A stretch of 40,766 bases of DNA from a virus (taxonomy: Duplodnaviria; Caudoviricetes), in the IMG/VR virus record IMGVR_UViG_3300032272_000034, positions 1 to 40,766 of that record; one strand, 5' to 3'. The notes beneath the pieces were generated by a model that saw only the letters and a list, made by a program, of their open reading frames with translations, was not told where the DNA came from and made no database searches. Position numbers and translations under genes: made by a program. Shown one piece after another: positions 11,918 through 29,229 of this stretch; within the stretch, counting starts at the first letter, position 1; the number at the start of each line of letters is the position of its first letter.

Positions 11918-11935
11918 TGTTATATCTAGTTGTGA
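11918..11935 (+). other. Putative attI-like entry site of cassette array A (TGTTATATCTAG^TTGTGA)
   Basis: Same 18 bp, inverted, begins array B at 29212-29229; contains the first GTT core. Confidence 0.55.
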
Positions 11936-11939
11936 AACA

Positions 11940-12242
11940 TTAAAGGGTTCTAGTATAAGTTATTTCACCATCTACATAATAATTCAATTCCTTGCCATTT
12001 CCAGCTACACTAAAAGTAGTTCCTTTTGGGTACATCTTTTTTAAGTCGCTTAAAGATTTAATTTTAATTTCATTGCCTTTTAAGTCCTTTAACGTTTCAC
12101 AACAACGTGTAACAGTAATTGCTTTTAATTTTCTTTCTAAAGACCTTACTTCTTGTCTTAGTTGGGTATTTTCATACCTCATTCGTTCGTAATCTTCTAG
12201 TTTTCTTTGGTTTTCTTCTGCTAAATATGTTAATTCGCTCAT
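11940..12242 (-). CDS. Cassette protein starting within attC-like loop
   Basis: ITVTRCC = translated hairpin arm. Confidence 0.7.
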   Translation of the reverse strand: MSELTYLAEENQRKLEDYERMRYENTQLRQEVRSLERKLKAITVTRCCETLKDLKGNEIKIKSLSDLKKMYPKGTTFSVAGNGKELNYYVDGEITYTRTL

Positions 12243-12306
12243 TGTATTTTTATTAAGTTATTTATAATTTCACGCAACAACGGTTACACAAATACGTTCT
12301 AAACAA

Positions 12307-12594
12307 TTATTGTTGGCTTGGTGGTTTTATAAATCGGTCACTAAAATACATGGTTTCTAGTCCGTAATCATCTAGCACTTTTGTATGCGTTCTGTCTTGG
12401 TATAGTTTTTTATAATACTTTCCTGCTGTTAAACCGTCTACATTACTATTTACACACAATAACTGTAGAGAACAACGGTTATAGTTAATATTTTCTAATT
12501 GCTCTTCTAAAAAGTCAATGTATTTTTCTTGGTCTGCTATTAACTGTATTTTCGTAGACTTGTTAATATAGTCTTTTCTATTAGGTCTTTTCAT
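12307..12594 (-). CDS. Cassette protein starting within attC-like loop
   Basis: INYNRCS = translated arm. Confidence 0.7.
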   Translation of the reverse strand: MKRPNRKDYINKSTKIQLIADQEKYIDFLEEQLENINYNRCSLQLLCVNSNVDGLTAGKYYKKLYQDRTHTKVLDDYGLETMYFSDRFIKPPSQQ

Positions 12595-12873
12595 TTTATC
12601 GCTTATTTATTAATTTATGTTTTAATCCACCACTACTAACCATAACCAAATACGCAGACGTTATGCCACAATTACTTTTTATTTAAGTATGTATCATATA
12701 CACAACATTTATTTAAGTTTTTTTTGCCTTTCTTAAAAATAGTACAGTATATAACACCAAATAAGATTAATGCTACATCTAGTTTTTGTTTACTATATTC
12801 AACATATTACTCAATATCGGTTAATTTGTGTATTATACTAAACATTACTGCACAAATCTTATTTGAATACGTT

Positions 12874-13173
12874 CTAAGTAATTAAATGGTTGTGATGGTA
12901 CTGTATGTATTTAAACAATACATCGTTATAACTATTTTCTATGTTCATATTTGAAACATATACATTAGGTCTAATTTCTTTAAAATACTCTTGTCTAAAC
13001 TCCTTAAATGTTAATTCATCTTCACTATTTAACTCCAGAGAACTACCTGTAAAATTAATAGCTACTTCTTCCCTTATTTCCTCAAGGGTCTGTATTGCTA
13101 TATTGCTTCCATTATAACCATCGTCTATTAACATTTGGTTAAGGTCTTTTAATTTACTTTCTAATTTACTCAT
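12874..13173 (-). CDS. Cassette protein starting within attC-like loop
   Basis: INFTGSS = translated arm. Confidence 0.7.
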   Translation of the reverse strand: MSKLESKLKDLNQMLIDDGYNGSNIAIQTLEEIREEVAINFTGSSLELNSEDELTFKEFRQEYFKEIRPNVYVSNMNIENSYNDVLFKYIQYHHNHLIT

Positions 13174-13251
13174 TGTTTCTTTATTTAGTTTATTGTTAAT
13201 TCACGCTACAAATCTTACAGTGTTTAGTTGTAAAACATATTGCTTAGTTTA

Positions 13252-13473
13252 TTATATGCTATGATGCCTATTGCAACTATCACAGTATTTACTATCTATT
13301 CTTTTTTCGCTTTTACATTCGCAAAACGATTTTACAACATCGTATAAACTTAATTGCTCTTTATGGTAATTACTTGCAAACTCTTTCATTGCATTTATTA
13401 TATGTCTATTAGCATCACCTATTTCAACATTATTTAAGTGCTTATTTAATATTCTTTGTGCTTTTATGTTCAT
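13252..13473 (-). CDS. Cassette protein with C-terminal CxC..CxxC
   Basis: QLSLYDV = translated arm. Confidence 0.7.
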   Translation of the reverse strand: MNIKAQRILNKHLNNVEIGDANRHIINAMKEFASNYHKEQLSLYDVVKSFCECKSEKRIDSKYCDSCNRHHSI

Positions 13474-13572
13474 TGTCTTTTTATTAATTTCTGTTATATT
13501 TTATCCGCAACTAAGCTTATACGTAATACGTTGTAAGTAATGCTTGTAAAAAAGGCCACCACTCTTATGTTT

Positions 13573-14097
13573 TCACTCAAACTCAATAGAATCTGAAACT
13601 TCATTACCCCAAACATCCCAATTTTCACCAGAAGTTCTTGCAAACATTTCTAATCTATCTACATTTGGAAACCAACTCTCAATCATATCTCTAACTTTCA
13701 GAGGTTTTTTACTATGTTTAGTTTTCTTTTCTTTTATAACACTACTAATTCTGTCTTTTGGTTTTGGAGGTGAAAATTTACCTTTAGTGCAAACCATTAA
13801 TATTTCGTGTTGGCCTCTAAACCAATAACCCATTCCAATAGTTTCCTTATCCCAAATGCAATGAGTTTTATATTTAAAACCCCAAGCCTTTATTAACTTA
13901 AAACTTTCTTCTAATTTTGGAGAAGTAGTCCACATATAAAGCACTGCGTTTTCTTTGGCTAAGTCTTTAACTGGTAAATCACACATTTCTTTAATTGTCA
14001 TTGTTGGGTATTGGTTTTCTATCTTTCTGCTATTGCTTTTGCTAAAGCTATATCTCCAAGCAGGGTCTGCATAAATCACATCATATTTCTTACTCAT
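13573..14097 (-). CDS. MT-A70 family adenine methyltransferase
   Basis: YDVIYADPAW, HSKKP, LEMFAR, WDVWGNE. Confidence 0.92.
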   Translation of the reverse strand: MSKKYDVIYADPAWRYSFSKSNSRKIENQYPTMTIKEMCDLPVKDLAKENAVLYMWTTSPKLEESFKLIKAWGFKYKTHCIWDKETIGMGYWFRGQHEILMVCTKGKFSPPKPKDRISSVIKEKKTKHSKKPLKVRDMIESWFPNVDRLEMFARTSGENWDVWGNEVSDSIEFE

Positions 14098-14286
14098 ACT
14101 TAATTTTATTTTTTATCAAAAATAATGGCCTTTTTCCCAATCACTACGTACAACACTGTATAAAATTAATTACTACTTTATTGTATATTTAAAAAGGCTT
14201 ATTACTTATATTAGTTATTTGTTTTACTTATTATTTTTTTGCTTGGCCACCGTAACTAATCTTATACGATTACGTTATAAACAATA

Positions 14287-14421
14287 CTATTTTTTGCCCT
14301 CTACACGTGCTAGGCTTATCAATAAGTCTTGTATGTAGTTCTTTAGGTCTTTATCTTCTTTTATGGCTAGTATCTTTAAAGGCTTAACGCAATCTTCTGG
14401 TATATCTATTAATTTTCTCAT
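14287..14421 (-). CDS. Ribbon-helix-helix-like small DNA-binding protein (44 aa)
   Basis: Manual translation MRKLIDIPEDCVKPLKILAIKEDKDLKNYIQDLL... Confidence 0.6.
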   Translation of the reverse strand: MRKLIDIPEDCVKPLKILAIKEDKDLKNYIQDLLISLARVEGKK

Positions 14422-14495
14422 TGAGCTATATTTTAGTTGTTTTTAGCTCATAACAAGAACATTCGTTAAAGTCAGTATCGTAACTTTCGTTGCAG

Positions 14496-14732
14496 TTATG
14501 GCAGTATATCAAACTCATTGTTTTCTTCTTTTTTTTTGTTGAAATTTAATAATCTTCTATTTAAATAATTAAGTCTATCCTGAGTCATCTTTCTTTTTTT
14601 TAGATAATTCCTCTCTAACTTTATTAAATCCATTTCTTTTAAATGTATTTCTTGTTCTATTTCATACCCTATAATTATAGTCCTGTATTCAATAGGTAAA
14701 TCGTTAAATTGTTTAGTGTAAGTTTTTTTCAT
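14496..14732 (-). CDS. Hypothetical coiled-coil protein
   Basis: ORF track. Confidence 0.6.
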   Translation of the reverse strand: MKKTYTKQFNDLPIEYRTIIIGYEIEQEIHLKEMDLIKLERNYLKKRKMTQDRLNYLNRRLLNFNKKKEENNEFDILP

Positions 14733-14734
14733 TA

Positions 14735-14869
14735 TTAATATAGTTTTTCGTTCAACGATTCTACTTTTTTACATAATTTACATTGTTCAATACAAGGGTT
14801 ATTATTATATGGACCATCATCTTGGTTACAATAAAAATAAAACGAAGTATCATTTTCTGCTTCACTCAT
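14735..14869 (-). CDS. Small Cys-rich protein (44 aa, C..C.EQC..C)
   Basis: Manual translation, abuts both neighbours. Confidence 0.5.
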   Translation of the reverse strand: MSEAENDTSFYFYCNQDDGPYNNNPCIEQCKLCKKVESLNEKLY

Positions 14870-14871
14870 AA

Positions 14872-15201
14872 TTAAACACTAATTGATTTTATATTTTTAA
14901 TACTATTTAAAATTTCTTTTATTTTTAATAAACTTTCATTGTTTGGGTTATTCTTTATTTTTATGTTAAAATCCATTTTATCACTAAAAGTATATCCTTT
15001 AACTTCTTTAAATAAATCTTTAAAAGCTATTTGCTCTTTAGAAAGAAAATCTTTGCAATGGTAAAAATTCAAATAACTTAATGTATCTCCATTAGTTAAT
15101 ATAATTTTAAAAGTAATCTTATCTCTTTTTTTAGTAGGAACTAAAGCTACTTTAATTTCAAATCCGTTTTGTATTTTATTGTAAATTTCTTGAGTTGTCA
15201 T
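14872..15201 (-). CDS. Hypothetical protein
   Basis: ORF track. Confidence 0.6.
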   Translation of the reverse strand: MTTQEIYNKIQNGFEIKVALVPTKKRDKITFKIILTNGDTLSYLNFYHCKDFLSKEQIAFKDLFKEVKGYTFSDKMDFNIKIKNNPNNESLLKIKEILNSIKNIKSISV

Positions 15202-15225
15202 AATATAGTTTTTAAAGGTTTGTTT

Positions 15226-15477
15226 CTAACTTCTATTCAAAGATACATTATATGTATCTACCATAAACTTATCTTCATAAAGGTAAACGTCTTTCCAATT
15301 TTCTTCTTGCCATTTCCTAAAAAGTAACAGTTCACGTTGTTGGTTAACATCGGTTAAAGTTAATTGCTTAGCTTTTGCATAATCTTCAATAGCTTTGTAT
15401 ATCTCGTTTATTTCTCTTTTACAATCTATTGTTAAACTAAAGTAGTTTTCATCTATAAATTCTTTTATTTCTTCCAT
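15226..15477 (-). CDS. Cassette protein starting within attC-like loop
   Basis: QLTLTDV = translated arm. Confidence 0.7.
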   Translation of the reverse strand: MEEIKEFIDENYFSLTIDCKREINEIYKAIEDYAKAKQLTLTDVNQQRELLLFRKWQEENWKDVYLYEDKFMVDTYNVSLNRS

Positions 15478-15541
15478 TTTTATTTATTTAATTTTGTTCA
15501 TAATTTACGCAACTAACCTTAACCACATACGTTCTAAGTAA

Positions 15542-15805
15542 TTAATTAACCTTTTTAATTAAGTCATCAGCAACTTTGTCAAATTTGCAATTATTTAAGT
15601 CAACCATATTATTGTGGTCTAGGCTTTCTAATTGGTTAATTAACAATTCCCTTTGACTGCCAACATCGGGTATAGATAATTGCTTTACATATTCCTCGTT
15701 TATTAAGGTTAGTGTGTCTACACAATTTTCTATAACATCTTTATCGTGCTGCTCTTTAGGTAAGATGTATTTTACCATTATTCTTAACTCTTCTTTTAAG
15801 TCCAT
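15542..15805 (-). CDS. Cassette protein starting within attC-like loop
   Basis: QLSIPDV = translated arm. Confidence 0.7.
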   Translation of the reverse strand: MDLKEELRIMVKYILPKEQHDKDVIENCVDTLTLINEEYVKQLSIPDVGSQRELLINQLESLDHNNMVDLNNCKFDKVADDLIKKVN

Positions 15806-15864
15806 ATTTACTATGTTTTGTTATTAATTCACACAACTAATACTATGCCTTTTCGTTCAATATT

Positions 15865-15872
15865 CAAATATA
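15865..15872 (-). promoter_or_regulatory. Possible Bacteroidota -7 box (TATATTTG) pointing into array A
   Basis: Matches TAnnTTTG; no clear -33 box. Confidence 0.4.
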
Positions 15873-15901
15873 ACAATAATACCCTTTAGAATCATTCTAA
15901 A

Positions 15902-16924
15902 TTAGAAGTCTACTTGTTTAGGAAAAGCTTCGTTTAATGTTGGTGTTGGGAGTTCTTCTCTTTCTTTAAGTTCTTTTTTTTCTCTTTTACCTAATATCTC
16001 GTATTTATCCACCAAATATCCTATAATGTCATTTTCTTTAAATTGAGGGGTTTCCATCATAAAAACATTTATCTTAGTTGGCTGCCATTCTAATATTATA
16101 GGGTTTTCAGTTGTTGTTTGATTACCTCCTGTGTGCTTATTCCTTACATGCTCTACTCTTATCTGGTTTAAACTAGAGCCACTTTCTCTATGTATAGCGC
16201 AAGTGTTGTGTGCTTTATTTAAAAACCATCCACCTTCAGCTTGGTAACTACTAACAGCTCCCTCCTGCCTTTGACCACTCATGTTAGGATGCTGTGTTAT
16301 ATGCACCGAGCAAACATCTTTAGTGAACTTTAACAATTCCAAACTAGCAGCAACCCCGTCTGCGTAACCATTTCCAGTATCTTGCCATCCATTTTTAAAT
16401 GAGTTTATCGGGTCTAATAACATACCATGCACATCAACACCGTCATTTATCAACCCTTTAGCTACTTCTGTTGCTGTTTTAATGTCATCTACTTTTATAA
16501 ATATAAAATGCTTATCAAGCCATTGCTCCGCTTTCTTAAATAATTCTGGATTAGTTTTTTTTACATTATTTGCAAAATCCCCTAATATGTAATTCATTAA
16601 ATTTAACTTCATACTCCAAGAACTGTTCTCTTGGAACGCCACAACCCAAATAAGATTATTTGATATTGTGAATATTAGTTGTAGTATTTGATAAATTGTA
16701 GTTTTACCTTGACCTTTTTTTCCCGTTACTATATAAAATTCATTTCGTTTACATAAAAAGTGATTATCAATTACTGAAATAGTGCTTTTAAAACCATGTG
16801 GTATTTTACCAGTTAGATAGTCGTCTAAGTCTTGATTTATTTCATTTTTATTAATTATGTGTTTTTTGTAATCAAATACATCTTCTAATCCGTATTTCTT
16901 GCTTTTATCTATTCTTTCTATCAT
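15902..16924 (-). CDS. DnaB/RecA-fold replicative helicase
   Basis: Walker A GKKGQGKT, LLDP, QHP, VRNK; downstream of initiator. Confidence 0.75.
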   Translation of the reverse strand: MIERIDKSKKYGLEDVFDYKKHIINKNEINQDLDDYLTGKIPHGFKSTISVIDNHFLCKRNEFYIVTGKKGQGKTTIYQILQLIFTISNNLIWVVAFQENSSWSMKLNLMNYILGDFANNVKKTNPELFKKAEQWLDKHFIFIKVDDIKTATEVAKGLINDGVDVHGMLLDPINSFKNGWQDTGNGYADGVAASLELLKFTKDVCSVHITQHPNMSGQRQEGAVSSYQAEGGWFLNKAHNTCAIHRESGSSLNQIRVEHVRNKHTGGNQTTTENPIILEWQPTKINVFMMETPQFKENDIIGYLVDKYEILGKREKKELKEREELPTPTLNEAFPKQVDF

Positions 16925-16925
16925 A

Positions 16926-17390
16926 TTAGCTAAATCTATTTAAGCATTCGTTAATCATTGTATCTAATTGCTCTGTAACAACGTCCAAAGTGTATTTTTC
17001 CTCGAACTCCTTTAAATCTATTTGCAAGCCGTCTTCTTTAAACTTGTCGGTTAATTTAATAATTTGATTACTATGTAGTTCTTTATGAAAGGCTGTGTAA
17101 AAATTAGCCAAAGGCAAGTTTAAAATACTAGACAACTCCTTTTTAGGAATGCTATCGAATACAGTAGATTCGTAGTGTCTAATTCCTTGATTCAATAAAT
17201 ATATGTATAATTTACCGAATAATTGGTTATTTTTTATAGTTTCGCTTCTTTGTCTATTAACCCAATCTATTAAGCAATTAACACTATCTATGTCGTTCTC
17301 GTTAGGTTTAAATGATTTTTCAGAAGAAAACCTCCATGCAATTCTTTGAACCGCTTTATCTAAATCGTACTTACTAACTTTGTTTTTCAT
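16926..17390 (-). CDS. Hypothetical protein in replication module
   Basis: Between initiator and helicase. Confidence 0.65.
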   Translation of the reverse strand: MKNKVSKYDLDKAVQRIAWRFSSEKSFKPNENDIDSVNCLIDWVNRQRSETIKNNQLFGKLYIYLLNQGIRHYESTVFDSIPKKELSSILNLPLANFYTAFHKELHSNQIIKLTDKFKEDGLQIDLKEFEEKYTLDVVTEQLDTMINECLNRFS

Positions 17391-18136
17391 AATATTGATT
17401 CATAAGGATTAGGGTTATTATTAACTACTTTTTTTATATCCTGCCTATTAAACCAATTTGTAAAGTGTGTTTTATAGTCTTTTAAAGTGTTCTTTTGCTC
17501 GCTAGTTCTTATCAAATGATTATCAAAGTCTGTTAAATATTTTTTAACCGTGTCTAAATTAGATTTAGTTTGCATTGCTGTTATTTCAATGTAAGAAGAG
17601 TCTTTTAATATTTGATTCTTGAATGCAGTGTTATTTATAGAACTTTCTATTTCTTTAATTGAATCTATTAAGGTTATTTGTGTAGTATTTTTTAATATAT
17701 CTTCTTCTCTTATCTTATCTTCTCTTAATAGTTGAGGTTGTGTTGAACATGAATTTAACACTTGTTGATGTTGTGTTAAATTTATGTTACTTTCTTGTTG
17801 AAGTTTTTTTAATTTCCTAGCCTTAGCGGATGCTTTACCACCTCTACTTCTTAACTCACTTCTTTGTTCTCGTTCTTCTTTTTGTTCGTTTAAAAAACTA
17901 ATAACCACACTGCCTTTTTCTATCTTAATATGATTTTCTGATACAAGCAGGTCTATTTCTGTTTTAACTGTCTTAAATCTCTTATAGAGAAGCTTAGATT
18001 CTAGAATACACTCTCTACTCCAATAATAAGAACAAACATTTATAAAAACGCCTTGTATGTTGTAATCTTCTAATGTTATATCCCCGTCGTTCCACTCTGA
18101 GCAGAAAAATTTAAAGTAAGGTAAGTCTTTAGCCAT
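17387..18136 (-). CDS. Replication initiator-like protein
   Basis: LPYFKF..EW N-terminus, RSRGGKAS linker, HFTNW C-terminus. Confidence 0.7.
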   Translation of the reverse strand: MAKDLPYFKFFCSEWNDGDITLEDYNIQGVFINVCSYYWSRECILESKLLYKRFKTVKTEIDLLVSENHIKIEKGSVVISFLNEQKEEREQRSELRSRGGKASAKARKLKKLQQESNINLTQHQQVLNSCSTQPQLLREDKIREEDILKNTTQITLIDSIKEIESSINNTAFKNQILKDSSYIEITAMQTKSNLDTVKKYLTDFDNHLIRTSEQKNTLKDYKTHFTNWFNRQDIKKVVNNNPNPYESIL

Positions 18137-18419
18137 TAGAAACCTCCTTTCTTAAAACAACCTTAGCTTCTGTTAATTCCAAAATATCTAAAGCTCTATT
18201 GTAATCACTTGTGGTTTTCGCCCATAAGCCAAATGCTTTATTGCTTGGATAGCTAACACAGTTAAATTGAGTGTTTTCTTTTCGCTCAAAAATTTCGTAG
18301 TGTTTACTAGAGCCTGTATCAACTCTATATAAATAAGCGTGTTCTGTTTTTTTTATTTGGGTAAACTTAAACCCTTTAACCTGTCCCTTTCCATCAAATA
18401 CTTCTCTTAATTCTTTCAT
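18129..18419 (-). CDS. Hypothetical protein
   Basis: ORF track. Confidence 0.65.
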   Translation of the reverse strand: MKELREVFDGKGQVKGFKFTQIKKTEHAYLYRVDTGSSKHYEIFERKENTQFNCVSYPSNKAFGLWAKTTSDYNRALDILELTEAKVVLRKEVSNG

Positions 18420-18612
18420 TTTATTTATTGTTTTATTTAAAATAACTTATGTTGGCTAATGTCAAACTCTTCCCACTTAACAACTTGTTTCTTCTTAGAG
18501 TTAATTGTTTGTGATATTTCTGTTCTTTGGCTTTTTAGTAATTCAATCTATGTATTTAGAATATTGATTTTACTTTTAATCTCTTCTTGTGTGTATTTAG
18601 TTTCATCCATAA

Positions 18613-18909
18613 TTAATAATATTTAATTTCTGTTCTTATGTTCATTGTTTTAAAGTCATCCATAGTAGGGAATGAGTCTACTCTCTTAAAAGTAATAACC
18701 CTTAACCCATCTACGCTTCCGTCGTTATAATAAATACTTTCTTGATCGTAAGAATCGTTTTGGTAGTAGAAGCTCTTGAACCTTCTTAGCTTCTCAGCTT
18801 CAAAGTCTACATCTATTTTTAACTCCTTAAGTCTATCTAGGAATATTTTCTTTCTTTTAGATTCTAAATCACTTGTAATTTTGGAGATAATCTCTTTTTG
18901 GAAATCCAT
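18613..18909 (-). CDS. Hypothetical protein
   Basis: ORF track. Confidence 0.65.
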   Translation of the reverse strand: MDFQKEIISKITSDLESKRKKIFLDRLKELKIDVDFEAEKLRRFKSFYYQNDSYDQESIYYNDGSVDGLRVITFKRVDSFPTMDDFKTMNIRTEIKYY

Positions 18910-18913
18910 ATAT

Positions 18914-18995
18914 AAAAAAACCTATTCTAAAAGAGGTTGAGGACTCTTGAAGAATAGGAATTATAAAATGTTTTTACGGTAGCCTCAACTCTACA
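18914..18995 (-). promoter_or_regulatory. Structured leader: terminator-like hairpin whose loop is complementary to an upstream segment
   Basis: CCTATTCT..AAGAG/CTCTT..AGAATAGG followed by T7; GTTGAGG/CCTCAAC pairing. Confidence 0.55.
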
Positions 18996-19013
18996 AAGTA
19001 AATATACAAAAAA

Positions 19014-19361
19014 TTATTTAATAATCTCGTATTCTACTGATAAATTATTTATTTTAAAATTATCTTTTTTAATGTTTATCAAAGTGTCTAAATTATTAAA
19101 TAGTTCTTTATATTTCTTAAAGTAGGGTTTATTTAGATGGTGTATAAATTTTTGTTGAGCATAAGTTATAGAAGAGTGGTTATTGTAACCAAACAAATCA
19201 GCTAGTGTTTCATTGGTGGTTTCTTTAAAAGGTAGATGAAATTTACATAGTGTTATTGCTGCGAACTTTGTCATTACAATATCTCTTTTATTTGACTTAA
19301 CCGATAAGTTATTTATACCAGACTCAAACTCTGTTAATTGTTTTATGTATTTTGGTGTCAT
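19014..19361 (-). CDS. DnaA C-terminal-like HTH protein
   Basis: LADLFGYNNHSSITYA. Confidence 0.55.
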   Translation of the reverse strand: MTPKYIKQLTEFESGINNLSVKSNKRDIVMTKFAAITLCKFHLPFKETTNETLADLFGYNNHSSITYAQQKFIHHLNKPYFKKYKELFNNLDTLINIKKDNFKINNLSVEYEIIK

Positions 19362-19363
19362 AT

Positions 19364-19570
19364 TTAATTTTTTCTTATAAAGTTATATACTGTTTCTTTA
19401 TTGTGTACTGTTTTTATTATTTTATTACCTAAGAATATTATAAAAACATAAGTATTGTTAAGATCAGGCTTGTTTATTTTAAATATATTGAATTTATTAC
19501 CTCTAATAGATATTATCTCAATATAAGTGTTTACCCTGTGTTTGTATTTATGATATTCAGTTAAGTACAT
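19364..19570 (-). CDS. Hypothetical protein
   Basis: ORF track. Confidence 0.45.
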   Translation of the reverse strand: MYLTEYHKYKHRVNTYIEIISIRGNKFNIFKINKPDLNNTYVFIIFLGNKIIKTVHNKETVYNFIRKN

Positions 19571-19650
19571 TTTACTATCAATATCGTTAATGCCACTATC
19601 ACTATTAATGCGTTTCTAAGTGTTTTATTTAATTTAAAGTTGTACATCAT

Positions 19651-20269: not shown

Positions 20270-20274
20270 ATATA

Positions 20275-20688: not shown

Positions 20689-20948
20689 TTGTATTTATGA
20701 TTATTTTTATTTATATAATCTTCTTTAGATTTTCTTCTTAGCTTTTCGTCTTTAACCATCTTTTTAAAAGTAGCATCCTCTTTATACATATTATCCGTAT
20801 CAATAACGGTTTTGTAACTTATTAAATTTGTGTTTTCTAATAAGTGGTTCTCGATTACATTAATTGACCTTCCCTTTACTTTAAAAGTAGCGTTAATCAT
20901 GTATTCTTGCTCTCTCATATCTATAAATAATTCTGAATTAGCTCCCAT
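20685..20948 (-). CDS. Hypothetical protein
   Basis: ORF track. Confidence 0.6.
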   Translation of the reverse strand: MGANSELFIDMREQEYMINATFKVKGRSINVIENHLLENTNLISYKTVIDTDNMYKEDATFKKMVKDEKLRRKSKEDYINKNNHKYK

Positions 20949-21586
20949 TACTTTAATGTTAGTTTAAGTTTATCTTTTAAAGAAGTCATTGCAGTTTGTT
21001 CAGTTCTTGTTAAAGAAGTGTAAACAGTTTGTAATTCGGTTAATGTTTTACAAGCGTTTAATTTCTCGCTAGGTGTTATTATCTTAGGTGCAAATTCTTT
21101 CTTAACCTCCTCTAAATATCTTACGTCATCAAACTTACCTAAAAATATGTCTGCATTAAAACCTAATTTAGAAAGCGCTTTTGTTAACGCATCAGTTTCT
21201 AATTTCTTAGCGTAGTTGTCATCTATTTTAGAATGTTTATTATCTGTAAATATTTTGATTGAGTTGGTTATTTCAAACTCTCCTTTAGGAAAGAAGAACG
21301 TAGCCTTAAAACCTACTAACCCTAAAACACTATTTATAACTTCTTTTGCTTTAGTGTTCCAATCAACTAAATTTAAAGTTATTGGTGTGTTAGTTATAGA
21401 GTAATCTAATTCTATATTCTTAAACCCCCACGTCTCACCATAACAACCAAATTGTTCAGTAGCATTAAGTATTTGAAATTGAGGTGATATAGAAGTAATA
21501 TTATTGCCACCTACTTTTGCTTTCTTAGTGTAGTTTGGATTAGTCTTTTCTACCTTATTCCAAAGTTCTAGGTTATTTGTTTCCAT
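20948..21586 (-). CDS. Rad52/Sak-like single-strand annealing protein
   Basis: FG..G..WG and KKLETDALTKALSKLGF motifs. Confidence 0.7.
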   Translation of the reverse strand: METNNLELWNKVEKTNPNYTKKAKVGGNNITSISPQFQILNATEQFGCYGETWGFKNIELDYSITNTPITLNLVDWNTKAKEVINSVLGLVGFKATFFFPKGEFEITNSIKIFTDNKHSKIDDNYAKKLETDALTKALSKLGFNADIFLGKFDDVRYLEEVKKEFAPKIITPSEKLNACKTLTELQTVYTSLTRTEQTAMTSLKDKLKLTLK

Positions 21587-21587
21587 T

Positions 21588-21833
21588 TTATTTATTGTTT
21601 ATAATTTGTGATTGATATATTTTATAATTTTTGTCTTGGTAATATCCGAAATTTTTAGCACTCTCACTAATTAAACGAGCAGTAATTTTAGTTTTTTTAA
21701 TACCGTCTTTAGTTTCTTTGTCGTAGATTAAGTTTTCACGCTCTATACTTGCTAAAGAATTTTGAATATCTACTTTACCATTGTGTTCTACTATCCATTT
21801 TTTACTCATGTTAAATCTGTTATTTCTTCGCAT
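21588..21833 (-). CDS. Hypothetical protein (start may be at MSKKW)
   Basis: ORF track. Confidence 0.55.
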   Translation of the reverse strand: MRRNNRFNMSKKWIVEHNGKVDIQNSLASIERENLIYDKETKDGIKKTKITARLISESAKNFGYYQDKNYKIYQSQIINNK

Positions 21834-21935
21834 TCGTGGTAATCTCCATCATCGTATTCAGCACCACACAAAGCGCATGAAACAATACCGTAGTGGTTTG
21901 ATGGGTTTCTAGGGTCGTTGTTAAACTCGTTCATG

Positions 21936-22367
21936 TTATTTGTTTTCGTGTATGTTTCCTGTTACTTCTAATATTTCCTCGGCATCTAACCAAATATTAT
22001 TATTTTCTAAACTACTTTGTATAGCTGAAAAAGGTATAAAGCTACTTATTGTTCTCTTGCCGTCGTGTTTTAAACCTCTAAAACCAAAGCATCCTTGATT
22101 AAAGCAAATCTTCATATTTACAGAGTCTCGGTACTTCATTCCTGTGTGGAACTTTATCACATCTCCTTCGTAAATCTCTTTACCGTTCTTATCTTTTAAA
22201 CCTGTGTATTGTTCTAATAAAAAGTTTTCAGAATTACCACAAGGGTTGTTGTTATTAGTTCCAGCAATAAGTCCTGTAGAGCCATCTATATAGCAATAAA
22301 CTTCTACATAATTATTGTATTCCTTTGTCTTTAAATTCCAAGCTCTAAATTTTATTTCTCTACTCAT
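21936..22367 (-). CDS. YopX family protein
   Basis: REIKFRAW, QYTGLKDKNGKEIYEGD, EVTGNIHEN. Confidence 0.93.
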   Translation of the reverse strand: MSREIKFRAWNLKTKEYNNYVEVYCYIDGSTGLIAGTNNNNPCGNSENFLLEQYTGLKDKNGKEIYEGDVIKFHTGMKYRDSVNMKICFNQGCFGFRGLKHDGKRTISSFIPFSAIQSSLENNNIWLDAEEILEVTGNIHENK

Positions 22368-22504
22368 TTTCTTTTGTTATTAGTTTCCAATTTCTAGGGT
22401 CTGTTTTTAATCCGTCTAATATAGTTAAAGCTATAACCATGTTTTTTGCTTTAATAATTAAGTTAGAGCCTTTATCTCTGTGTTTAAAGTTGTATTCTAT
22501 CATG

Positions 22505-22690
22505 TTAAAACCATCTTGAAGTTAGTACTCTGGTAAAATTACCATCTTTATATAGTATTAATTCGCTTTTTGAAGCATCTCTTAATGATATCCTAAAGTC
22601 CGTAGTGCTTAGGTGTTTAATTTCTTTATTTAAAGAAGATTCTATTAAGTCCTCTCTTTCTAATAATATAACTTTTTCTATTCTTATCAT
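22505..22690 (-). CDS. Hypothetical protein
   Basis: ORF track. Confidence 0.55.
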   Translation of the reverse strand: MIRIEKVILLEREDLIESSLNKEIKHLSTTDFRISLRDASKSELILYKDGNFTRVLTSRWF

Positions 22691-22955
22691 GGTAGTGGTT
22701 TATTAGTTACTGCGTTATCATAAGGAGATACACAAGTATCAATGTTTTTGTTTGCTTTGTAAGTTATAACAACATCTGTTAATAACCTAGTTTCTTCTTG
22801 CTTTTTCATCTTGTAAATATTTGAATTTATCATGGTAAAAGTTCATGTACCATTTAGTTTGTTTGTGTTCTAGTTTTAAATAATAATACTTAAATCCCAT
22901 TACTAAGAAAAGTATTAATAGCACTATAATGATTATTAGTTCTGCTTTCATAATA

Positions 22956-23474
22956 TTAGTCTATAATTGTTTTACCTAATTGTTTTTCTGCTTCTTCTTT
23001 TGTAATTGTTTCTATTATCGTTGCCCATTTACCATCGACAAACAAGTAAGTTCTCCATCCTGACTCGCAAGTAAATACCAAACTGCCTCTTTCAAATCTA
23101 AATGAAGATGCAATTACTCTAGTGTGATCACTATTATAAGGGGATACTACCTTAACCCCTTTTTTAAAACCTCTTTTCTTAGCCTCTTTTATTAAAGCTT
23201 CTTTTACTTCTTTGTCGGTGGCTGGTCTTACTACATCAGATAGATACCATACGTTTTTGATTCCATCAATACGATACACTCTAGGGTCTCCAGCGTTGTC
23301 AAAATCATAAATTTTAGATAATTCCATAGTTACATCACCCATAAAAACCCAATCATTTTTTTTATACTCAGTCTCTTTAAATAACTTTGGGAACTCTTTT
23401 TCTATTTTTGCTTTCCATTCAGAACAAGCTGCTGCGTGTCCATCTTTAATAAATTGTTTTCTTGATTCTTTCAT
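22956..23474 (-). CDS. Hypothetical phage protein
   Basis: RPATDKEV..ALIKEAKKRGF motif; strong ORF. Confidence 0.7.
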   Translation of the reverse strand: MKESRKQFIKDGHAAACSEWKAKIEKEFPKLFKETEYKKNDWVFMGDVTMELSKIYDFDNAGDPRVYRIDGIKNVWYLSDVVRPATDKEVKEALIKEAKKRGFKKGVKVVSPYNSDHTRVIASSFRFERGSLVFTCESGWRTYLFVDGKWATIIETITKEEAEKQLGKTIID

Positions 23475-23607
23475 AATATTGTTTTTAATGTTAAAATTTT
23501 CCTCTTACAGCCATTCTCAGAGAAGTAAACACAATTTAATTGTGGATGAAATTGTATAACTCATAAGCTTATGTAGCCAACAAACCATTTGTTATTTTGC
23601 TACTTTA

Positions 23608-23841
23608 CTATTGTTCTTTTAATTTTATTAATAAATCTCTTTGTATAGCTGCTTCCTCGTAATTCTCTGACTCAACAGCTCTATCTAATTCTCTTTGCGC
23701 TTTTTCTATTTGCTTATCAATACTTAAAGTATCTTTTACTTTAGTGCTGTTTTTTAATTTCTCGTTAAATCTATCCATGAAACTAATATAGTCTCTATGT
23801 CTTTGCAATTCTTTTCTTTCCTCGTATCCTTCTGGTGGCAT
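23608..23841 (-). CDS. UvrB/UvrC-motif protein
   Basis: LDRAVESENYEEAAIQRD. Confidence 0.8.
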   Translation of the reverse strand: MPPEGYEERKELQRHRDYISFMDRFNEKLKNSTKVKDTLSIDKQIEKAQRELDRAVESENYEEAAIQRDLLIKLKEQ

Positions 23842-23883
23842 ATCTTTTGTTTTTAATTATACACCAAAGATGGTGTTTATTGT

Positions 23884-24063
23884 TTATATTGTTATAAATT
23901 CTCTTTCTACATCATATCCAAATACACTTACAAAAACTAAAGAAGAACAAAAAACTATATTCTCTCTAATCCCTGTTTCTTTATCTTTCTTTCCAGAAGT
24001 AAATCCTAATTCTCTACTACTTACTTTACTAGATTGTTCTTTTGTTAGTTTTACGTATCTCAT
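23884..24063 (-). CDS. Small hypothetical protein (59 aa, MRYVKLTKEQ...)
   Basis: Manual translation; directly downstream of leftward promoter. Confidence 0.6.
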   Translation of the reverse strand: MRYVKLTKEQSSKVSSRELGFTSGKKDKETGIRENIVFCSSLVFVSVFGYDVEREFITI

Positions 24064-24093
24064 GATATTTTTGTTTTAGTTATTAACTGAGTT

Positions 24094-24101
24094 CAAATCT
24101 A
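24094..24101 (-). promoter_or_regulatory. Leftward Bacteroidota -7 box TAGATTTG
   Basis: TAnnTTTG consensus at the strand switch. Confidence 0.55.
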
Positions 24102-24187
24102 CAAATACTTTTTAGATAATTAACTATAAAATGTAAAAAAAGTGCGTTTTTGTGTTTATTTATAATGATTATAAATATCGTAAATAG

Positions 24188-24218
24188 TTTGTTTATTGGT
24201 TAAATTGTGGTAGATTTG
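24188..24218 (+). promoter_or_regulatory. Rightward Bacteroidota primary-sigma promoter
   Basis: TTTG-N19-TAGATTTG, full consensus. Confidence 0.8.
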
Positions 24219-24245
24219 CTTAACTAACAATTAAAAACATATAAA

Positions 24246-24574
24246 ATGGGGCAGATAGATAAAATAACGAATTATAACATGGTTATTGAAAAAAACATAC
24301 ATATAAGTTTACAAAAAACTAAAAAAGTATACATATAGGTACAAACCGAACAAAGCATTCAAACATTGAGAATCCAGAATCAACTCCTTACGATGAGTCT
24401 TTTAGAGAAGTATATGATGCTGATATTCAGAATTGGAAAGAAGGTATTAAAAGGGGTAACTCTAATTTATTACACGACTTTTTCAATTCAAATAGTGATG
24501 CAAATAAATATCTTGACGCCTCTCAACAAGAGGATTTGGAGTTTAAATTCTCTAGATTCGTTATGAATAGGTAA
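24246..24574 (+). pseudogene. Frame-disrupted first rightward gene
   Basis: ATG frame stops after 30 codons; the -1 frame is open to 24574; imperfect ~31-bp tandem duplication at the break. Confidence 0.45.
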
Positions 24575-24591
24575 TATTTTAATAAAAACAG

Positions 24592-24612
24592 AAAGCCCCC
24601 TTTCAGGGCTTT
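24592..24612. terminator. Small hairpin AAAGCCC-CCTTTCA-GGGCTTT
   Basis: Inverted repeat between genes; short T tail. Confidence 0.4.
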
Positions 24613-24626
24613 CATAAAATAATAAA

Positions 24627-24869
24627 ATGGGGAATTATTTAGATGGTTACGAAAAAGAAGTTTGTGGACACTGCAATCTAAAAAGAACATCAGAAGGACA
24701 CGATGGTTGTATTGGTGCTTTGCTAAATGTAAAGAATGCTTGTTGTGGTCACGGGGAGGATAACATAGCTTATGTACAGTTAGATCATGATGATTATGAG
24801 AACGAGCCAAACAAGTTTAATATCAAAGGAAAAGATGCAATTAAGTATATAAAGGAAAATAAACTATAA
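24627..24869 (+). CDS. Cys/His-rich hypothetical protein
   Basis: CxxC, GHDGCIG, NACCGHG. Confidence 0.75.
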   Translation: MGNYLDGYEKEVCGHCNLKRTSEGHDGCIGALLNVKNACCGHGEDNIAYVQLDHDDYENEPNKFNIKGKDAIKYIKENKL

Positions 24870-25165
24870 TTAACATTTTTTCAACAGCACGAGCAAGAAC
24901 CCGTAGATATAGAATTTACTGAGATAAAAAACTTTAAAATAAAGGATATATTAGACAAGCGTATTGTATAAACTTTTATTACGCTCTAACGACGTATTGT
25001 ATAAGGTTAGTTGCGATAATAGAAGCAGAAACTTAGTAAATAAAACAGATAATTAATAATAGAAAATAACCCTTTAGAAAAACGGAAATTAGCAATTAAC
25101 TTTATACGTTGTTGTGCGCTGTTATTTTAAAAAGCCCGTTATTTTTGCAAAAAATAAAACCCGAT

Positions 25166-25912
25166 ATGATTGACATAAGATTAAGCGATAATTTAGAATT
25201 AATGGCAGAAATGCAAGATAACACAGTTGATTTAATTTACTGCGATATACTTTACGGAACAGGCAGGAAGTTTGATGATTACCAAGATTTAAAACCTAAA
25301 AGAGAATTGATTGAAGAGCATTACATACCAAGAGTTAAGGAAATGCACCGTATTTTAAAAGATACTGGAAGTATTTATTTACAAATGGACACTAAAATAA
25401 ATCATTGGATGAGATGTGTTTTAGATGATATTTTTGGATATAATAGATTTTTAAATGAAGTTGTTTGGTGTTATAGATGGGGGAGTAGACATAAAAATAA
25501 GTGGAACTCTAAGCACGATATTATATTATTGTACTCTAAAAGTAAAAAGTGGACTTTTAATGCGGATGAAGTTAGAGAAGAGTATGCTAAAAATAGTGCA
25601 ATGACTAAAAATAAAAAATACAACAAATCTTATAATGAAAAAGGAGCATTACCAAGAGATATTATAAATTTAGAAATTATAAACTCTATGAGTACAGAAA
25701 AAACGGGTTACAATACACAAAAACCTAAAAAATTAATTGAAAAACTAATAAAAGCAAGTAGCAACGAAGGAGATTTAGTTGCAGACTTTTACGCTGGTAG
25801 TTTTACAACTGCGGAAGTTTGCAAAGATTTAAACCGTAATTTTATAGGGTGTGATATTTCCGAAAAAGCTGTAAAGATTGGACGTGCAAGAGTTAATTCC
25901 CACGTAATATGA
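25166..25912 (+). CDS. N4-cytosine/N6-adenine DNA methyltransferase (beta-type)
   Basis: DLIYCDILY, TQKP, VADFYAGS; start revised to ATG 25166. Confidence 0.88.
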   Translation: MIDIRLSDNLELMAEMQDNTVDLIYCDILYGTGRKFDDYQDLKPKRELIEEHYIPRVKEMHRILKDTGSIYLQMDTKINHWMRCVLDDIFGYNRFLNEVVWCYRWGSRHKNKWNSKHDIILLYSKSKKWTFNADEVREEYAKNSAMTKNKKYNKSYNEKGALPRDIINLEIINSMSTEKTGYNTQKPKKLIEKLIKASSNEGDLVADFYAGSFTTAEVCKDLNRNFIGCDISEKAVKIGRARVNSHVI

Positions 25913-25996
25913 CCACAATAATGGCGGGCTTTTTACAATAATGGCGCACAACGTTAAAGCTATGCTTAGTGCGATTAACTTAAAACAAATATTATT

Positions 25997-26296
25997 ATGA
26001 AAACAGAAGAAATAGCACAATGGGTAATAGATAACAGATACTCTAAAAGTGAAAACAACAAAGTAAGTGATAGTGAAATGTACTACACTTTAATTGATAA
26101 GATAAATGAAGCATTAAGTATAGGTAGTGTTACCCCTCGTTATTTTTATGTAGTAGAAAAAAACTATGGAGAAGATTTAGAACAACTAAGTATAGGTTTA
26201 GAAACACTTGAACAAGCTAAAACTTTTAAGGATAGCGATTACCACAAAAAGAGAAACCCAAATGCTTTTATAGTGTGTACTATTAATGAGGGGTAA
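25997..26296 (+). CDS. Cassette protein starting within attC-like loop
   Basis: ALSIGSV = arm; stop TAA lies in the next TAAC core. Confidence 0.7.
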   Translation: MKTEEIAQWVIDNRYSKSENNKVSDSEMYYTLIDKINEALSIGSVTPRYFYVVEKNYGEDLEQLSIGLETLEQAKTFKDSDYHKKRNPNAFIVCTINEG

Positions 26297-26344
26297 CGTA
26301 TTGTGTAACCGAAGTATTGAATAAATTAAAACAAATAGATAAAA

Positions 26345-26638
26345 ATGAATAAAAAAGAAAAAGAGATAACTCTTGTTAATATGTTAAATTGTTATATTAA
26401 TGCGACAAATTTAACAAATAAACAAATAGAAGAAAGCGAAAAGTTTGTAGGTGAACTATTAGAAAATATTTCTGTTACACGTTGTTGTACGGAGTTAAAA
26501 GATAAAAAAGCACCTACTTTTGAGCAATGGAAAAAAGATAATTTTACATCTGAAATAAATATACATAAGTGTTTAAAGAATGGTAGAACTTGGGGAAGTA
26601 CTGAAATTTATAGTTTATACAATTGGCTGTACAAATAA
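26345..26638 (+). CDS. Cassette protein starting within attC-like loop
   Basis: ISVTRCC = arm. Confidence 0.7.
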   Translation: MNKKEKEITLVNMLNCYINATNLTNKQIEESEKFVGELLENISVTRCCTELKDKKAPTFEQWKKDNFTSEINIHKCLKNGRTWGSTEIYSLYNWLYK

Positions 26639-26709
26639 CTTTTAATTACTTACAACGTATTTGTGTAAGCGTTTTTGCGTGAATAATAACAAAACTAAAT
26701 AGATAAGAA

Positions 26710-27042
26710 ATGAAAAAAATTGAACAATATATTAAAGAAGAAATGAAAGATTGCCCTTTTACACAAGAGCAAGAAGATAAACTATTAATTGGTTTAACTA
26801 AGTTTTTAGATGACTTAGAAACCGAGCAATTACGTTTAAACGGAGTTGGGCGAAGTTTTATTCACGAACTTATCCAAAAAGAAAACGTACTAAAAACTAA
26901 ATTAAGTGAGAATTTAGACCTTTATAAAGAACGAAATAATATGGTTGAATACGATAAAACATTTAGCCAATGGAATAAGTGTAATTTAGTTTTATGGGAC
27001 TTAAAAGACATACTTTGTAGAATGGGCGAAGACATTGATTAA
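26710..27042 (+). CDS. Cassette protein starting within attC-like loop
   Basis: QLRLNGV = arm. Confidence 0.7.
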   Translation: MKKIEQYIKEEMKDCPFTQEQEDKLLIGLTKFLDDLETEQLRLNGVGRSFIHELIQKENVLKTKLSENLDLYKERNNMVEYDKTFSQWNKCNLVLWDLKDILCRMGEDID

Positions 27043-27103
27043 AATTACGCCCAACGTATTGCGGGTATGATTTGATTTTTAACGAGTAAATAAAATATAA
27101 ACA

Positions 27104-27430
27104 ATGAAAGAAGTAGAAAGAATTTTTAGAGCTGTATTTGGTGTTACAGTAGAAGATACACCAGAATTAAATAATGAGCAAAAGGGTATCATAGAGTATA
27201 TGGAGAACTATAAAGAGAATGAAGTTAAAAAATTAATTATACCCGATGTTAGCAAATGGCAATGGTTAGCTAATACTAAACCTAAGTTAGAAAATAAAAT
27301 ATACAACGTTTTAGATAAACACGGAAAAGAAGGTAAACTTATATTTGGATGTAGTGGATTTATGAATGAACCTTATTCTTTTTTTGATAGTGACTTTATA
27401 AAAGGTAGTGATGTAATTGCTTTTTGCTAA
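27104..27430 (+). CDS. Cassette protein starting within attC-like loop
   Basis: KLIIPDV = arm; stop lies in TAAC core. Confidence 0.7.
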   Translation: MKEVERIFRAVFGVTVEDTPELNNEQKGIIEYMENYKENEVKKLIIPDVSKWQWLANTKPKLENKIYNVLDKHGKEGKLIFGCSGFMNEPYSFFDSDFIKGSDVIAFC

Positions 27431-27520
27431 CGAATAGTATATGAAGCGTTTTGAGGAACGAAAAATGATTTTATATACCGTGTTATATACTGGCACGGTT
27501 TAATTAGTAAAAACTTAATT

Positions 27521-27979
27521 ATGAAATACGATAGCAAAGCAGATACTCTACTGCACATTAAAAGAGTAAATCAATTAATGACAGAAGCAGCAAGTGAATT
27601 GATTAGACGTGCCAATGTTCACGATAATTCAAAACTTGAAAGCCCCGAAAAGGAATTGTTTGACGAGTACACACCAAAGTTAAAAGATTGTACTTACGGA
27701 AGTGATGAATACAAAGAGTTTTTGAAGGGATTGAAAGTAGCCCTTGACCATCATTACGAAAATAACAGCCACCACCCTGAACATTACGAAAATGGCGTAA
27801 ATGGGTTTGACTTATTTGACTTAATAGAAATGTTCTTTGATTGGAAGGCGGCAACAGAACGACACGCTGACGGCAACATAATGAAGTCTATTGAGATAAA
27901 TAAAGGGCGGTTTGAATTATCTGAACAGATTTGCGATATTATGAGAAATACTGCTGTTCGTTTAGGATACGATAAGTAG
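27521..27979 (+). CDS. DUF5662-like HD-related protein
   Basis: HDNSK, HHYENNSHHPEH, EMFFDW. Confidence 0.8.
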   Translation: MKYDSKADTLLHIKRVNQLMTEAASELIRRANVHDNSKLESPEKELFDEYTPKLKDCTYGSDEYKEFLKGLKVALDHHYENNSHHPEHYENGVNGFDLFDLIEMFFDWKAATERHADGNIMKSIEINKGRFELSEQICDIMRNTAVRLGYDK

Positions 27980-28046
27980 TGCTTGTATATAACGTATTTG
28001 GTTAAGGTTAGTTGCGTGAATAATAGAAATAATTAAATAAATACAA

Positions 28047-28280
28047 ATGAAAGCAAATTTAAAGCAGTTAGAGGAAATGCAAAAAGAATTGTTTAAACAG
28101 CAATGTGATTTAGATATACAGAAAGCAATGTTAAAACACTTTATAAAAAAGAAAGAAGACGAGTTATTAACTTTAACCGATGTTAGTGTGCCGTTGTGCC
28201 GATACATTCTTTGCGATAAAGAAGCTGATGGAGATGGTGAATTATGGTGTAAAGACCATGACCTTCAAGTAAATAGTTAG
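28047..28280 (+). CDS. Cassette protein with C-terminal Cys/His cluster
   Basis: LLTLTDV = arm. Confidence 0.7.
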   Translation: MKANLKQLEEMQKELFKQQCDLDIQKAMLKHFIKKKEDELLTLTDVSVPLCRYILCDKEADGDGELWCKDHDLQVNS

Positions 28281-28474
28281 GCATTATGCACTCTAACTTA
28301 TTTGTGTATGGTTTGGTGCGATTTAAGGAAATAACTTAATAAATAAAACAAGTAATAAGAATGATAGAAATAATTGGTTAAAAAAGTAAATAGTAGCACT
28401 GAACTATACACGTTGTTGTGCGCTGTTATTTTAAAAAGCCCGTTATTTTTGCAAAAAATAAAATACGTACAGAT

Positions 28475-29176
28475 ATGAAGTATATGGGAAGTAAAAACAG
28501 AATAGCAAAACATATTTTACCAATAATGTTAGAGTATAAAACAGATGATATGGTTTGGGTTGAGCCTTTTGTCGGTGGTGCAAATATGATTGATAAGGTA
28601 AAAGGAAAAAGAATTGGAGCAGACCTTAACGAGTATTTAATTGAAGCATTAAAACTTATTAGGGATGAACCAAATAAAATACCTGACTTAATTACAGAAG
28701 ATGATTACCAAAAAGTTAAAAATGAAAAACAATTAAATGGATTAACTGGATTTATAGGTTTTGCAATGAGTTTTGGTGGTAAATGGTTTGGCGGCTATAG
28801 AAGAGATGTTGCAGGAACTAAAGGTTGTATTGACAATATGAAAACCCAAACAAGAAGAAGTAAACAAAATGCAATAAAACAAAGTGTAAATTTACAAGGT
28901 GTTGATTTTGTAAACTGTAGTTATGAAGATTTAGAAATACCTGAAAATAGCATTGTTTATTGCGACCCACCATACAAAGGAACAACAGGTTACAAAGATG
29001 GATTTAACCACGATGATTTTTGGGCTTGGGTTATAAAAATTAATAATATAGCCCATAAAGTATTTATAAGCGAATATAATGCGCCTAAAGAGTTTAAATG
29101 TGTTTGGAGTAAAGAAGTGAATACTACAATAAACACAAGTAAGAAAGATGTCGAAAAACTTTTCACACTCGAGTAA
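28475..29176 (+). CDS. Dam-like (D12 class) adenine methyltransferase
   Basis: YMGSK, VEPFVGG, YCDPPY; start revised to ATG 28475. Confidence 0.92.
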   Translation: MKYMGSKNRIAKHILPIMLEYKTDDMVWVEPFVGGANMIDKVKGKRIGADLNEYLIEALKLIRDEPNKIPDLITEDDYQKVKNEKQLNGLTGFIGFAMSFGGKWFGGYRRDVAGTKGCIDNMKTQTRRSKQNAIKQSVNLQGVDFVNCSYEDLEIPENSIVYCDPPYKGTTGYKDGFNHDDFWAWVIKINNIAHKVFISEYNAPKEFKCVWSKEVNTTINTSKKDVEKLFTLE

Positions 29177-29211
29177 GAACGTATGAGTGGCGGGCTTTTT
29201 ACAATAATTGC

Positions 29212-29229
29212 TCACAACTAGATATAACA
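29212..29229 (-). other. Putative attI-like entry site of array B
   Basis: Exact reverse complement of 11918-11935. Confidence 0.55.

Follow-up and report, generated by a model that had tools for sequence, protein, structure and literature searches.

The whole virus record IMGVR_UViG_3300032272_000034 (Caudoviricetes; 40,766 nt, hereafter the window) carries two arrays of hairpin-bounded gene cassettes of a type found in Bacteroidota, each closed by an attI-like terminal sequence and with its genes in the orientation inverse to that of host cassettes. The window encodes no tyrosine recombinase, and in related phages cassettes have been gained, lost or swapped with breakpoints at the core of the hairpin sites. 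The reading that we consider probable is that these arrays are recombined by a borrowed Xer-like tyrosine recombinase devoid of the I2 insertion of the integron integrases (IntI). An integron-like cassette system had already been described in a note made from the DNA letters alone (the original prediction), which missed that the phage genes run opposite to the host ones relative to the sites, that 11 of them start inside a hairpin, and that exchange at the second core of the site gives chimeric proteins.

The 16 hairpin sites form two groups of eight, at 12101-15857 (array 1) and 24988-28417 (array 2), and a bare terminal core closes each array (11929-11931 and 29216-29218, respectively), in agreement with the two arrays of eight attC-like units bounded by inverted repeats that had been predicted. 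Read on the gene strand, a site begins with AAC and 5-8 nt (once 12), continues with a loop flanked by the two arms of a 16-bp stem, and ends with 3 nt and GTT, for a total length of 56 to 198 nt. A detector trained on 15 window sites recovered 14 of the 16 without any match elsewhere in the genome; it gave one match in 10 block shuffles, which, the training being circular, bound false positives only, and after retraining it gave none in 512 kb of shuffled loci. The arms pair at 146 of 150 positions in 15 sites, compared with 54-65 when slid against each other. The covariation expected of genuine arms was found in 36 related sites of ~122 nt (four from the window), chosen by a detector that itself rewards pairing, with two-sided changes at 13 of the 16 stem pairs and 96.8% of cells paired. 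On the gene strand the stems of 15 window sites contain 13 G.T and no A.C pairs, and the arms are more stable on that strand in 14 of the 16 sites. All window stems are ungapped over 16 bp, without extrahelical base (EHB), and a bulge on the EHB arm is rare in general (12/377 viral and 23/399 host sites). A generic scan for AAC..GTT palindromes could not distinguish the sites from noise, an Rfam search gave no match, and minimum free energy folding of whole sites failed, because of their AT-rich loops, to recover most of the long-range stems, so the arms were scored instead.

The bodies between the sites retain complementary ends at 74 of 96 positions, where 100,000 permutations gave 33.8 on average and never more than 60 (p<1e-5), and 10 of the 16 bodies are complementary at 5-6 of 6 positions. 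Array 2 is clean (43/48), while array 1 reaches 31/48. The R'/R'' complementarity of the original prediction is thus confirmed overall, including its four examples, with the exception of four bodies of array 1 discussed below.

Differences among relatives, compared over array regions only in the Polaribacter phage isolates P12002L/P12002S and Danklef, support the view that these units move as cassettes and recombine at the GTT/AAC core. Danklef_1 and Danklef_2 differ by a 781-bp indel comprising a hairpin and a methyltransferase, with ends in a shared TAAC and flanks 99.7-99.8% identical. P12002L and P12002S, whose backbones are over 99% identical, differ in their cassettes, six of the seven junctions lying at the core. 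Furthermore, a contig from run X3 matches positions 11856-11931 with two differences (~97% identity) and continues with a different cassette right after GTT, and the matches of two run X5 contigs end at 11931-11932. Breakpoints at the core in related phages are what had been predicted. Most joints in the contig comparisons corresponded to arm repeats of other phages and were excluded from use. No RNA run was listed as matching the window. Run X1, the best DNA match, yielded no long piece of the window in the ~67% examined; relatives retrieved through the window primase/helicase or exonuclease were too distant for array comparison, few having sites nearby. In some viral loci (e.g. L075, L105 and L142) hairpin and leader are near-identical and the genes behind them diverge as of the ATG, which suggests gene replacement at the start codon.

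The system extends well beyond the window. Sites were detected in 29 of the 57 viral loci retrieved via two window proteins; P12002L and P12002S have two arrays apiece and Danklef a single one, and the structural pattern is estimated to occur in ~480 viral and ~8100 genome stretches, with 68 of the 74 genome loci listed named as Bacteroidota. Viral and host cassettes differ in polarity: in viruses the genes of 149 of 182 bodies lie on one site strand (3 opposite, 30 unclear), whereas those of 139 of 153 host bodies lie on the other (7 opposite, 7 unclear). Every unit of the window bearing an open reading frame (ORF) shows the phage orientation, with the hairpin 5' of the gene and antisense to host cassettes. 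Similar sites in differing contexts keep the downstream body, as read on the gene strand, in 13:0 viral and 41:3 host cases, although most similar-site pairs share neither flank and the counts are not independent events. Since the hairpin is kept with the body that follows it, the usual crossover would be at the 5' AAC and the phage unit would be hairpin-then-gene. The alternative that the second core (GTT on the gene strand) is the sole crossover, making every gene chimeric, was rejected as the main route on these counts and on the Danklef indel, and was kept as a second one. We speculate that, through the inversion, the strand able to fold could lie on the lagging template or be the non-template strand while the genes follow transcription; a lagging-strand effect is described in PMC8946536.

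The absence of a tyrosine recombinase from the window, already claimed from the sequence, was borne out by PHROGs/Pfam searches of the 72 ORFs and a genome search with PF00589, and a six-frame search with a profile of related-phage recombinases found neither enzyme nor stump (best domain E 0.35). Because the window encodes none, the recombinase must act in trans. A candidate is provided by the hosts, where a ~70-site array in one contig begins directly after a 376-aa tyrosine recombinase with homologues in 34 of 61 Flavobacteriaceae genomes. The array-adjacent host enzyme has 18 residues where VchIntIA has 59, i.e. it is ~41 residues shorter at the insertion and lacks I2. The host enzymes (376-405 aa) score 187-195 bits against TIGR02249, for a cut-off of 265, and the ~270-aa phage versions 139-153; none of five array-bearing hosts has a match above the cut-off. 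A phage version lies just beyond the terminal site in 6 of 202 viral loci, and Danklef keeps a 152-aa stump. From its adjacency to arrays we infer that this I2-less Xer-like recombinase is the cognate enzyme, and the window phage is likely to borrow it from its host or from a co-infecting phage. The host itself is probably a flavobacterium, because the closest DNA matches of the array DNA are phages of Polaribacter, Flavobacterium and Cellulophaga. Hence, of the proposal that accessory genes are gained and lost as cassettes with a recombinase supplied in trans by a host IntI/Xer-like enzyme, the core-exact exchange and the supply in trans stand, while the enzyme appears to be not IntI proper but an I2-less Xer-like one, which some related phages carry themselves. 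Large chromosomal arrays with many duplicated cassettes were also observed in Flavobacteriaceae (G001 C14 467422-540000, ~70 sites; G003 C1 1272000-1315000, over 45). The 'integrase' annotated in Danklef_1 (L373 6534-6989) is part of the C-terminal stump, right after the array, and this stump may be the single integrase behind the suggested temperate lifestyle.

The same enzymes bear on whether the arrays are ordinary clusters of attC sites lacking integrases (CALINs), that is, cassettes that the phage took from host integrons and that a classical IntI recombines. The AAC/GTT cores and the strand bias obey integron rules, and IntI1 recombined five of six phage-borne sites in Qi 2023 (PMC9892861); however, the one tested site of window type, P12002L_attC1, did not recombine with IntI1 in the same work, and the inverted phage genes, the scarcity of EHB-side bulges in viral sites and the failure of all five array-bearing hosts to exceed the TIGR02249 cut-off leave this explanation very improbable. 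The window shares with classical integrons the AAC/GTT cores with complementary ends, a conserved hairpin folding better on the gene strand and a putative attI-like array end, and with CALINs the absence of a nearby intI; it lacks intI, the I2 insertion, EHBs and a gene on the top strand upstream of attC. The label integron-like is therefore apt in that the system functions like a cassette array, and too broad if it is taken to place it in the classical family.

Both window arrays are closed, downstream in the gene direction, by an identical stretch of 17 nt. In 21 of 36 integrase loci a docking GTT matching the end of the first cassette lies 26-135 bp past the integrase stop; in the remaining 15 the locus contained no site. 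Of these 21 host sites, 17 follow the docking consensus AAC-N4/5-KATAW, and both window array ends fit it, ranking within the top 31 of the 1820 AACs. Similarly, both P12002L arrays end in an identical 68-bp repeat (L001 3173-3240 and 11199-11266), which is the published P12002L_attC2. The terminal sites of the window are thus putative attI-like docking sites, by which its arrays would exceed orphan clusters. An exact search for the 17-nt motif gave six viral loci, none with detected sites, and a search with the 22-nt flank gave no matches.

Each of the 11 window sites that measure 182-198 nt contains an ATG followed by 40-48 codons that read through the second core into the body, a property of 34 of 37 long viral sites and 1 of 32 host ones. 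The hairpin-encoded heads recur in front of many different tails. Of 60 homologues of ORF 15226-15477 (head 1), 50 share the head only; they and the query make up 51 proteins with 42 families of tails, and in 48 of them the residue at the join is valine, encoded by the GTT. The head of ORF 28047-28280 (head 2) is common to all 119 homologues listed (the best 119 of 152), with 68 tail families. Thirteen of the 51 head-1 proteins carry a tail also found behind the unrelated head 2; the window's own tail occurs behind unrelated heads in nine proteins, eight of them with a different right-arm peptide; and ORF 26710-27042 has its tail in common with P12002L/S and an unrelated head. At the DNA level, the same body start follows a different hairpin in 16 of 27 viral and 4 of 36 host pairs, although the pairs lack independence and many of the host ones are recent duplicates. 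A head comparison (one pair) gave proportions of synonymous and non-synonymous differences of 0.37 (pS) and 0.06 (pN), i.e. purifying selection. A viral scan with head-1 DNA returned two truncated loci only. Assembly chimerism is an unlikely source of the fusions in the tail-sharers with different arms and in the isolate comparison. CxxC or CxxxC motifs occur in 57 of 147 tails (median 35 aa; set P0001-P0181), possibly small metal-binding modules.

A mechanism can be proposed in which the gene strand, folding best through its G.T wobbles, is likely cleaved at the 5' AAC core by the I2-less enzyme, so that a hairpin and the gene following it would usually move together, with the terminal site as the entry point of new units. 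The I2 insertion accommodates the EHBs in integron integrases (Escudero 2016, PMC4792948), and an enzyme without I2 corresponds to stems that rarely bulge on the EHB arm. Because the hairpins lack EHBs and the enzyme lacks I2, the other strand would likely be recombined at times at the second core (GTT), detaching the hairpin from its body; deletion of EHBs favours top-strand recombination (Nivina 2016, PMC5027507), which could explain this second-core exchange. Since hairpins of ~190 nt carry the start codon and ~45 codons through the second core, such an exchange would join any head to any in-frame tail. The extension of this scheme to a two-sided combinatorial protein generator, in which one core moves genes and the other fuses heads to a shared pool of tails, so that small chimeric proteins would be available to Bacteroidota phages without a fixed limit, and which is possibly how cassettes and IntI integrons arose from an Xer-like ancestor, is tentative, and we would put its chances at slightly below even.

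Several observations weigh against a system of borrowed site-specific recombination acting at both cores. No excised circle or alternative junction of the window phage was seen in the assembled contigs, which cannot show circles; 27 of the 61 sampled genomes have no integrase match. The reciprocal product of second-core exchange, an upstream body and the same hairpin with a new downstream body, is rare (0 and 1 cases at the DNA level). Complementarity has been lost in four array-1 bodies (starting at 15664, 15348, 13043 and 12755; 2-3 of 6 positions). One of the seven P12002 junctions lies ~11 nt into an arm. The right arms of heads 1 and 2 are nearly the same, so that the tails common to both could stem from homology. 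Finally, besides terminase, portal, tail and primase/helicase genes (PHROGs/Pfam), the window encodes NinB, NinG and an exonuclease/annealing-type protein, which could support a homologous route.

The last three of these points, together with the stronger fold on the gene strand, which is the mRNA strand, would fit hairpins that are regulatory 5' leaders shuffled at their arms by the phage's own homologous or relaxed-homology recombination, with no site-specific enzyme. Such leaders would resemble the promoter-early stem-loop (PeSL) cassettes of T4-type phages, in which stem-loops preceding small genes mark the places of modular shuffling. However, the junctions share just 3-4 nt, eight of the nine proteins with one tail behind unrelated heads have a different right arm, the complementarity of body ends has no RNA rationale, and the same sites stand 3' of genes in host arrays starting at a recombinase. 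Unlike PeSL cassettes, the sites of the window type have their junctions at cores of the recombinase type and also make up host arrays next to a recombinase. We regard this alternative as distinctly unlikely.

A different reading accepts the system as genuine and sees it as largely a relic in the window lineage, with arrays that date from an ancestor carrying or encountering the enzyme and that are now decaying. The window genome has neither enzyme nor stump, half of the eight array-1 bodies are non-complementary and one site of that array is degenerate, the spacer of the terminal site is 4 nt where most host sites have 5, and Danklef retains only its stump. This reading is nevertheless unlikely, with some chance left to it, in view of the intact array 2, of the relative ~97% identical over the terminal site with another cassette there, and of the enzyme-less P12002 and stump-only Danklef isolates, over 99% identical, that differ by whole cassettes in the array regions compared. 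Recombination by a borrowed enzyme thus remains the reading we prefer for the features of Table 1.

Table 1. Hairpin sites, terminal sites and methyltransferase cargo of the two window arrays; complementarity refers to the ends of the body.
Feature	Position	Strand	Length (nt)	Complementarity	Remarks
attI-like terminal site of array 1 (putative)	11918..11934	+	17		core GTT 11929-11931; identical to end of array 2
Hairpin site	12101..12298	-	198	6/6	ATG of ORF 11940-12242 inside, 46 codons before second core
Hairpin site	12471..12662	-	192	4/6	12-nt spacer; ATG of ORF 12307-12594 inside
Hairpin site	12753..12873	-	121	2/6	followed by 96-nt body without called ORF
Hairpin site	13041..13229	-	189	3/6	ATG of ORF 12874-13173 inside
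Hairpin site	13336..13532	-	197	6/6	ATG of ORF 13252-13473 inside
MT-A70 family DNA adenine methyltransferase, cassette cargo	13573..14097	-			PF05063 E 2e-25; phrog_359
Hairpin site	14152..14276	-	125	5/6	heads MT-A70 methyltransferase cassette
Hairpin site	15346..15533	-	188	2/6	ATG and 43-codon head of ORF 15226-15477
Degenerate first site of array 1	15662..15857	-		3/6	ATG of ORF 15542-15805 inside
Hairpin site	24988..25113	+	126	6/6	heads N6/N4 methyltransferase cassette
N6/N4 DNA methyltransferase, cassette cargo	25187..25912	+			PF01555 E 3e-47
Hairpin site	25950..26131	+	182	6/6	ATG of ORF 25997-26296 inside
Hairpin site	26295..26486	+	192	4/6	ATG of ORF 26345-26638 inside
Hairpin site	26654..26847	+	194	5/6	ATG of ORF 26710-27042 inside
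Hairpin site	27053..27250	+	198	6/6	ATG of ORF 27104-27430 inside
Minimal hairpin site	27429..27484	+	56	6/6	heads DUF5662 cassette (ORF 27521-27979)
Hairpin site	27991..28184	+	194	5/6	ATG and 45-codon head of ORF 28047-28280
Hairpin site	28295..28417	+	123	5/6	heads D12 methyltransferase cassette
D12-class adenine methyltransferase, cassette cargo	28475..29176	+			PF02086 E 2e-17
attI-like terminal site of array 2 (putative)	29213..29229	-			AAC 29216-29218 on +

The window genome has direct terminal repeats (127-nt end overlap) and a GC content of 31%. Divergent TAGATTTG motifs at 24101 (-) and 24211 (+) lie between the leftward early genes and array 2, whose direction is opposite to that of the remaining genome. 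The unit at 14277-15533 spans 1257 nt and contains three to four ORFs but no arms; homologues of its 3' part occur in L011 and L064. The leaders of the three methyltransferase bodies (13530-14154, 25111-25952 and 28415-29218) all contain a TAnnTTTG motif, which we take to be the Bacteroidota -7 promoter box. Each of these bodies has imperfect terminal inverted repeats of ~27-37 nt, of a kind found in 8 of 139 viral and none of 199 host bodies, which may record the drop-in of a gene to an empty cassette. The N6/N4 methyltransferase gene (25149-25872) is 89% identical at the DNA level to L002 3333-4052 of Flavobacterium muminviruses, in which the retrained detector found no sites; genes therefore enter or leave cassettes. 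The three methyltransferases probably counter host restriction, an established role of orphan phage methyltransferases, as argued in Qi 2023 (PMC9892861).

Should the reading that we prefer hold, lytic phages would manage their accessory genes through a site-specific cassette system common with their hosts, and this system would diversify proteins beyond gene order. It would also represent a natural intermediate between Xer and IntI, devoid of both I2 and EHBs, bearing on the origin of integrons and the genesis of cassettes. Our results point to a large integron-like family in Bacteroidota that the IntegronFinder 2.0 survey (Neron 2022), to the extent covered here, does not report as complete integrons, these being found in Bacteroidetes only in Salinibacter. 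In the literature searched, with subscription papers, bioRxiv supplements and Cury 2016 lying outside it, neither the I2-less system of Bacteroidota nor the inversion nor the head-tail shuffling was found described; the sources covered in part further include PMC8618304, PMC13492144, PMC13323075, PMC8138268, bioRxiv 2022.02.06.479319, PMC8776804 and PMC4615864.

Among known systems, the closest are the phage CALINs of Qi 2023 (PMC9892861), likewise attC-like clusters in lytic flavobacterial phages without integrase and with methyltransferase cargo. P12002L_attC1 of that study is a site of window type by our detector, and attC2 is the attI-like terminal repeat of both P12002L arrays; two sites are given there for P12002L, where the detector finds 11-12 in two arrays. 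Phage attC clusters are thus already known, and the main text and the half of the supplement consulted contain no inversion, terminal site, Xer-like enzyme or head-tail fusions. With the sedentary chromosomal integrons (PMC5027507, PMC4792948), the window system shares AAC/GTT cores, a folded strand with G.T bias, complementary ends and a docking site by a tyrosine recombinase. Those integrons, as described in these two papers, have an IntI with I2, an attI, and attC sites with EHBs, an unpaired central spacer (UCS) and a variable terminal structure (VTS), whereas the window sites have no EHB, an asymmetric 5-7:3 spacer and up to 198 nt (classical 57-141). The window genes, moreover, are antisense and begin within the sites, and the system would use an I2-less enzyme and both cores for exchange. 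A further parallel is the XerCD-hijacking phage CTXphi (Escudero 2016, PMC4792948), in which a folded single-stranded site free of EHBs is likewise recombined by an I2-less host enzyme borrowed by the phage; CTXphi, however, integrates its whole genome at dif, while the window carries many internal cassettes and a phage-borne putative docking site, and would depend on a dedicated, array-adjacent recombinase.

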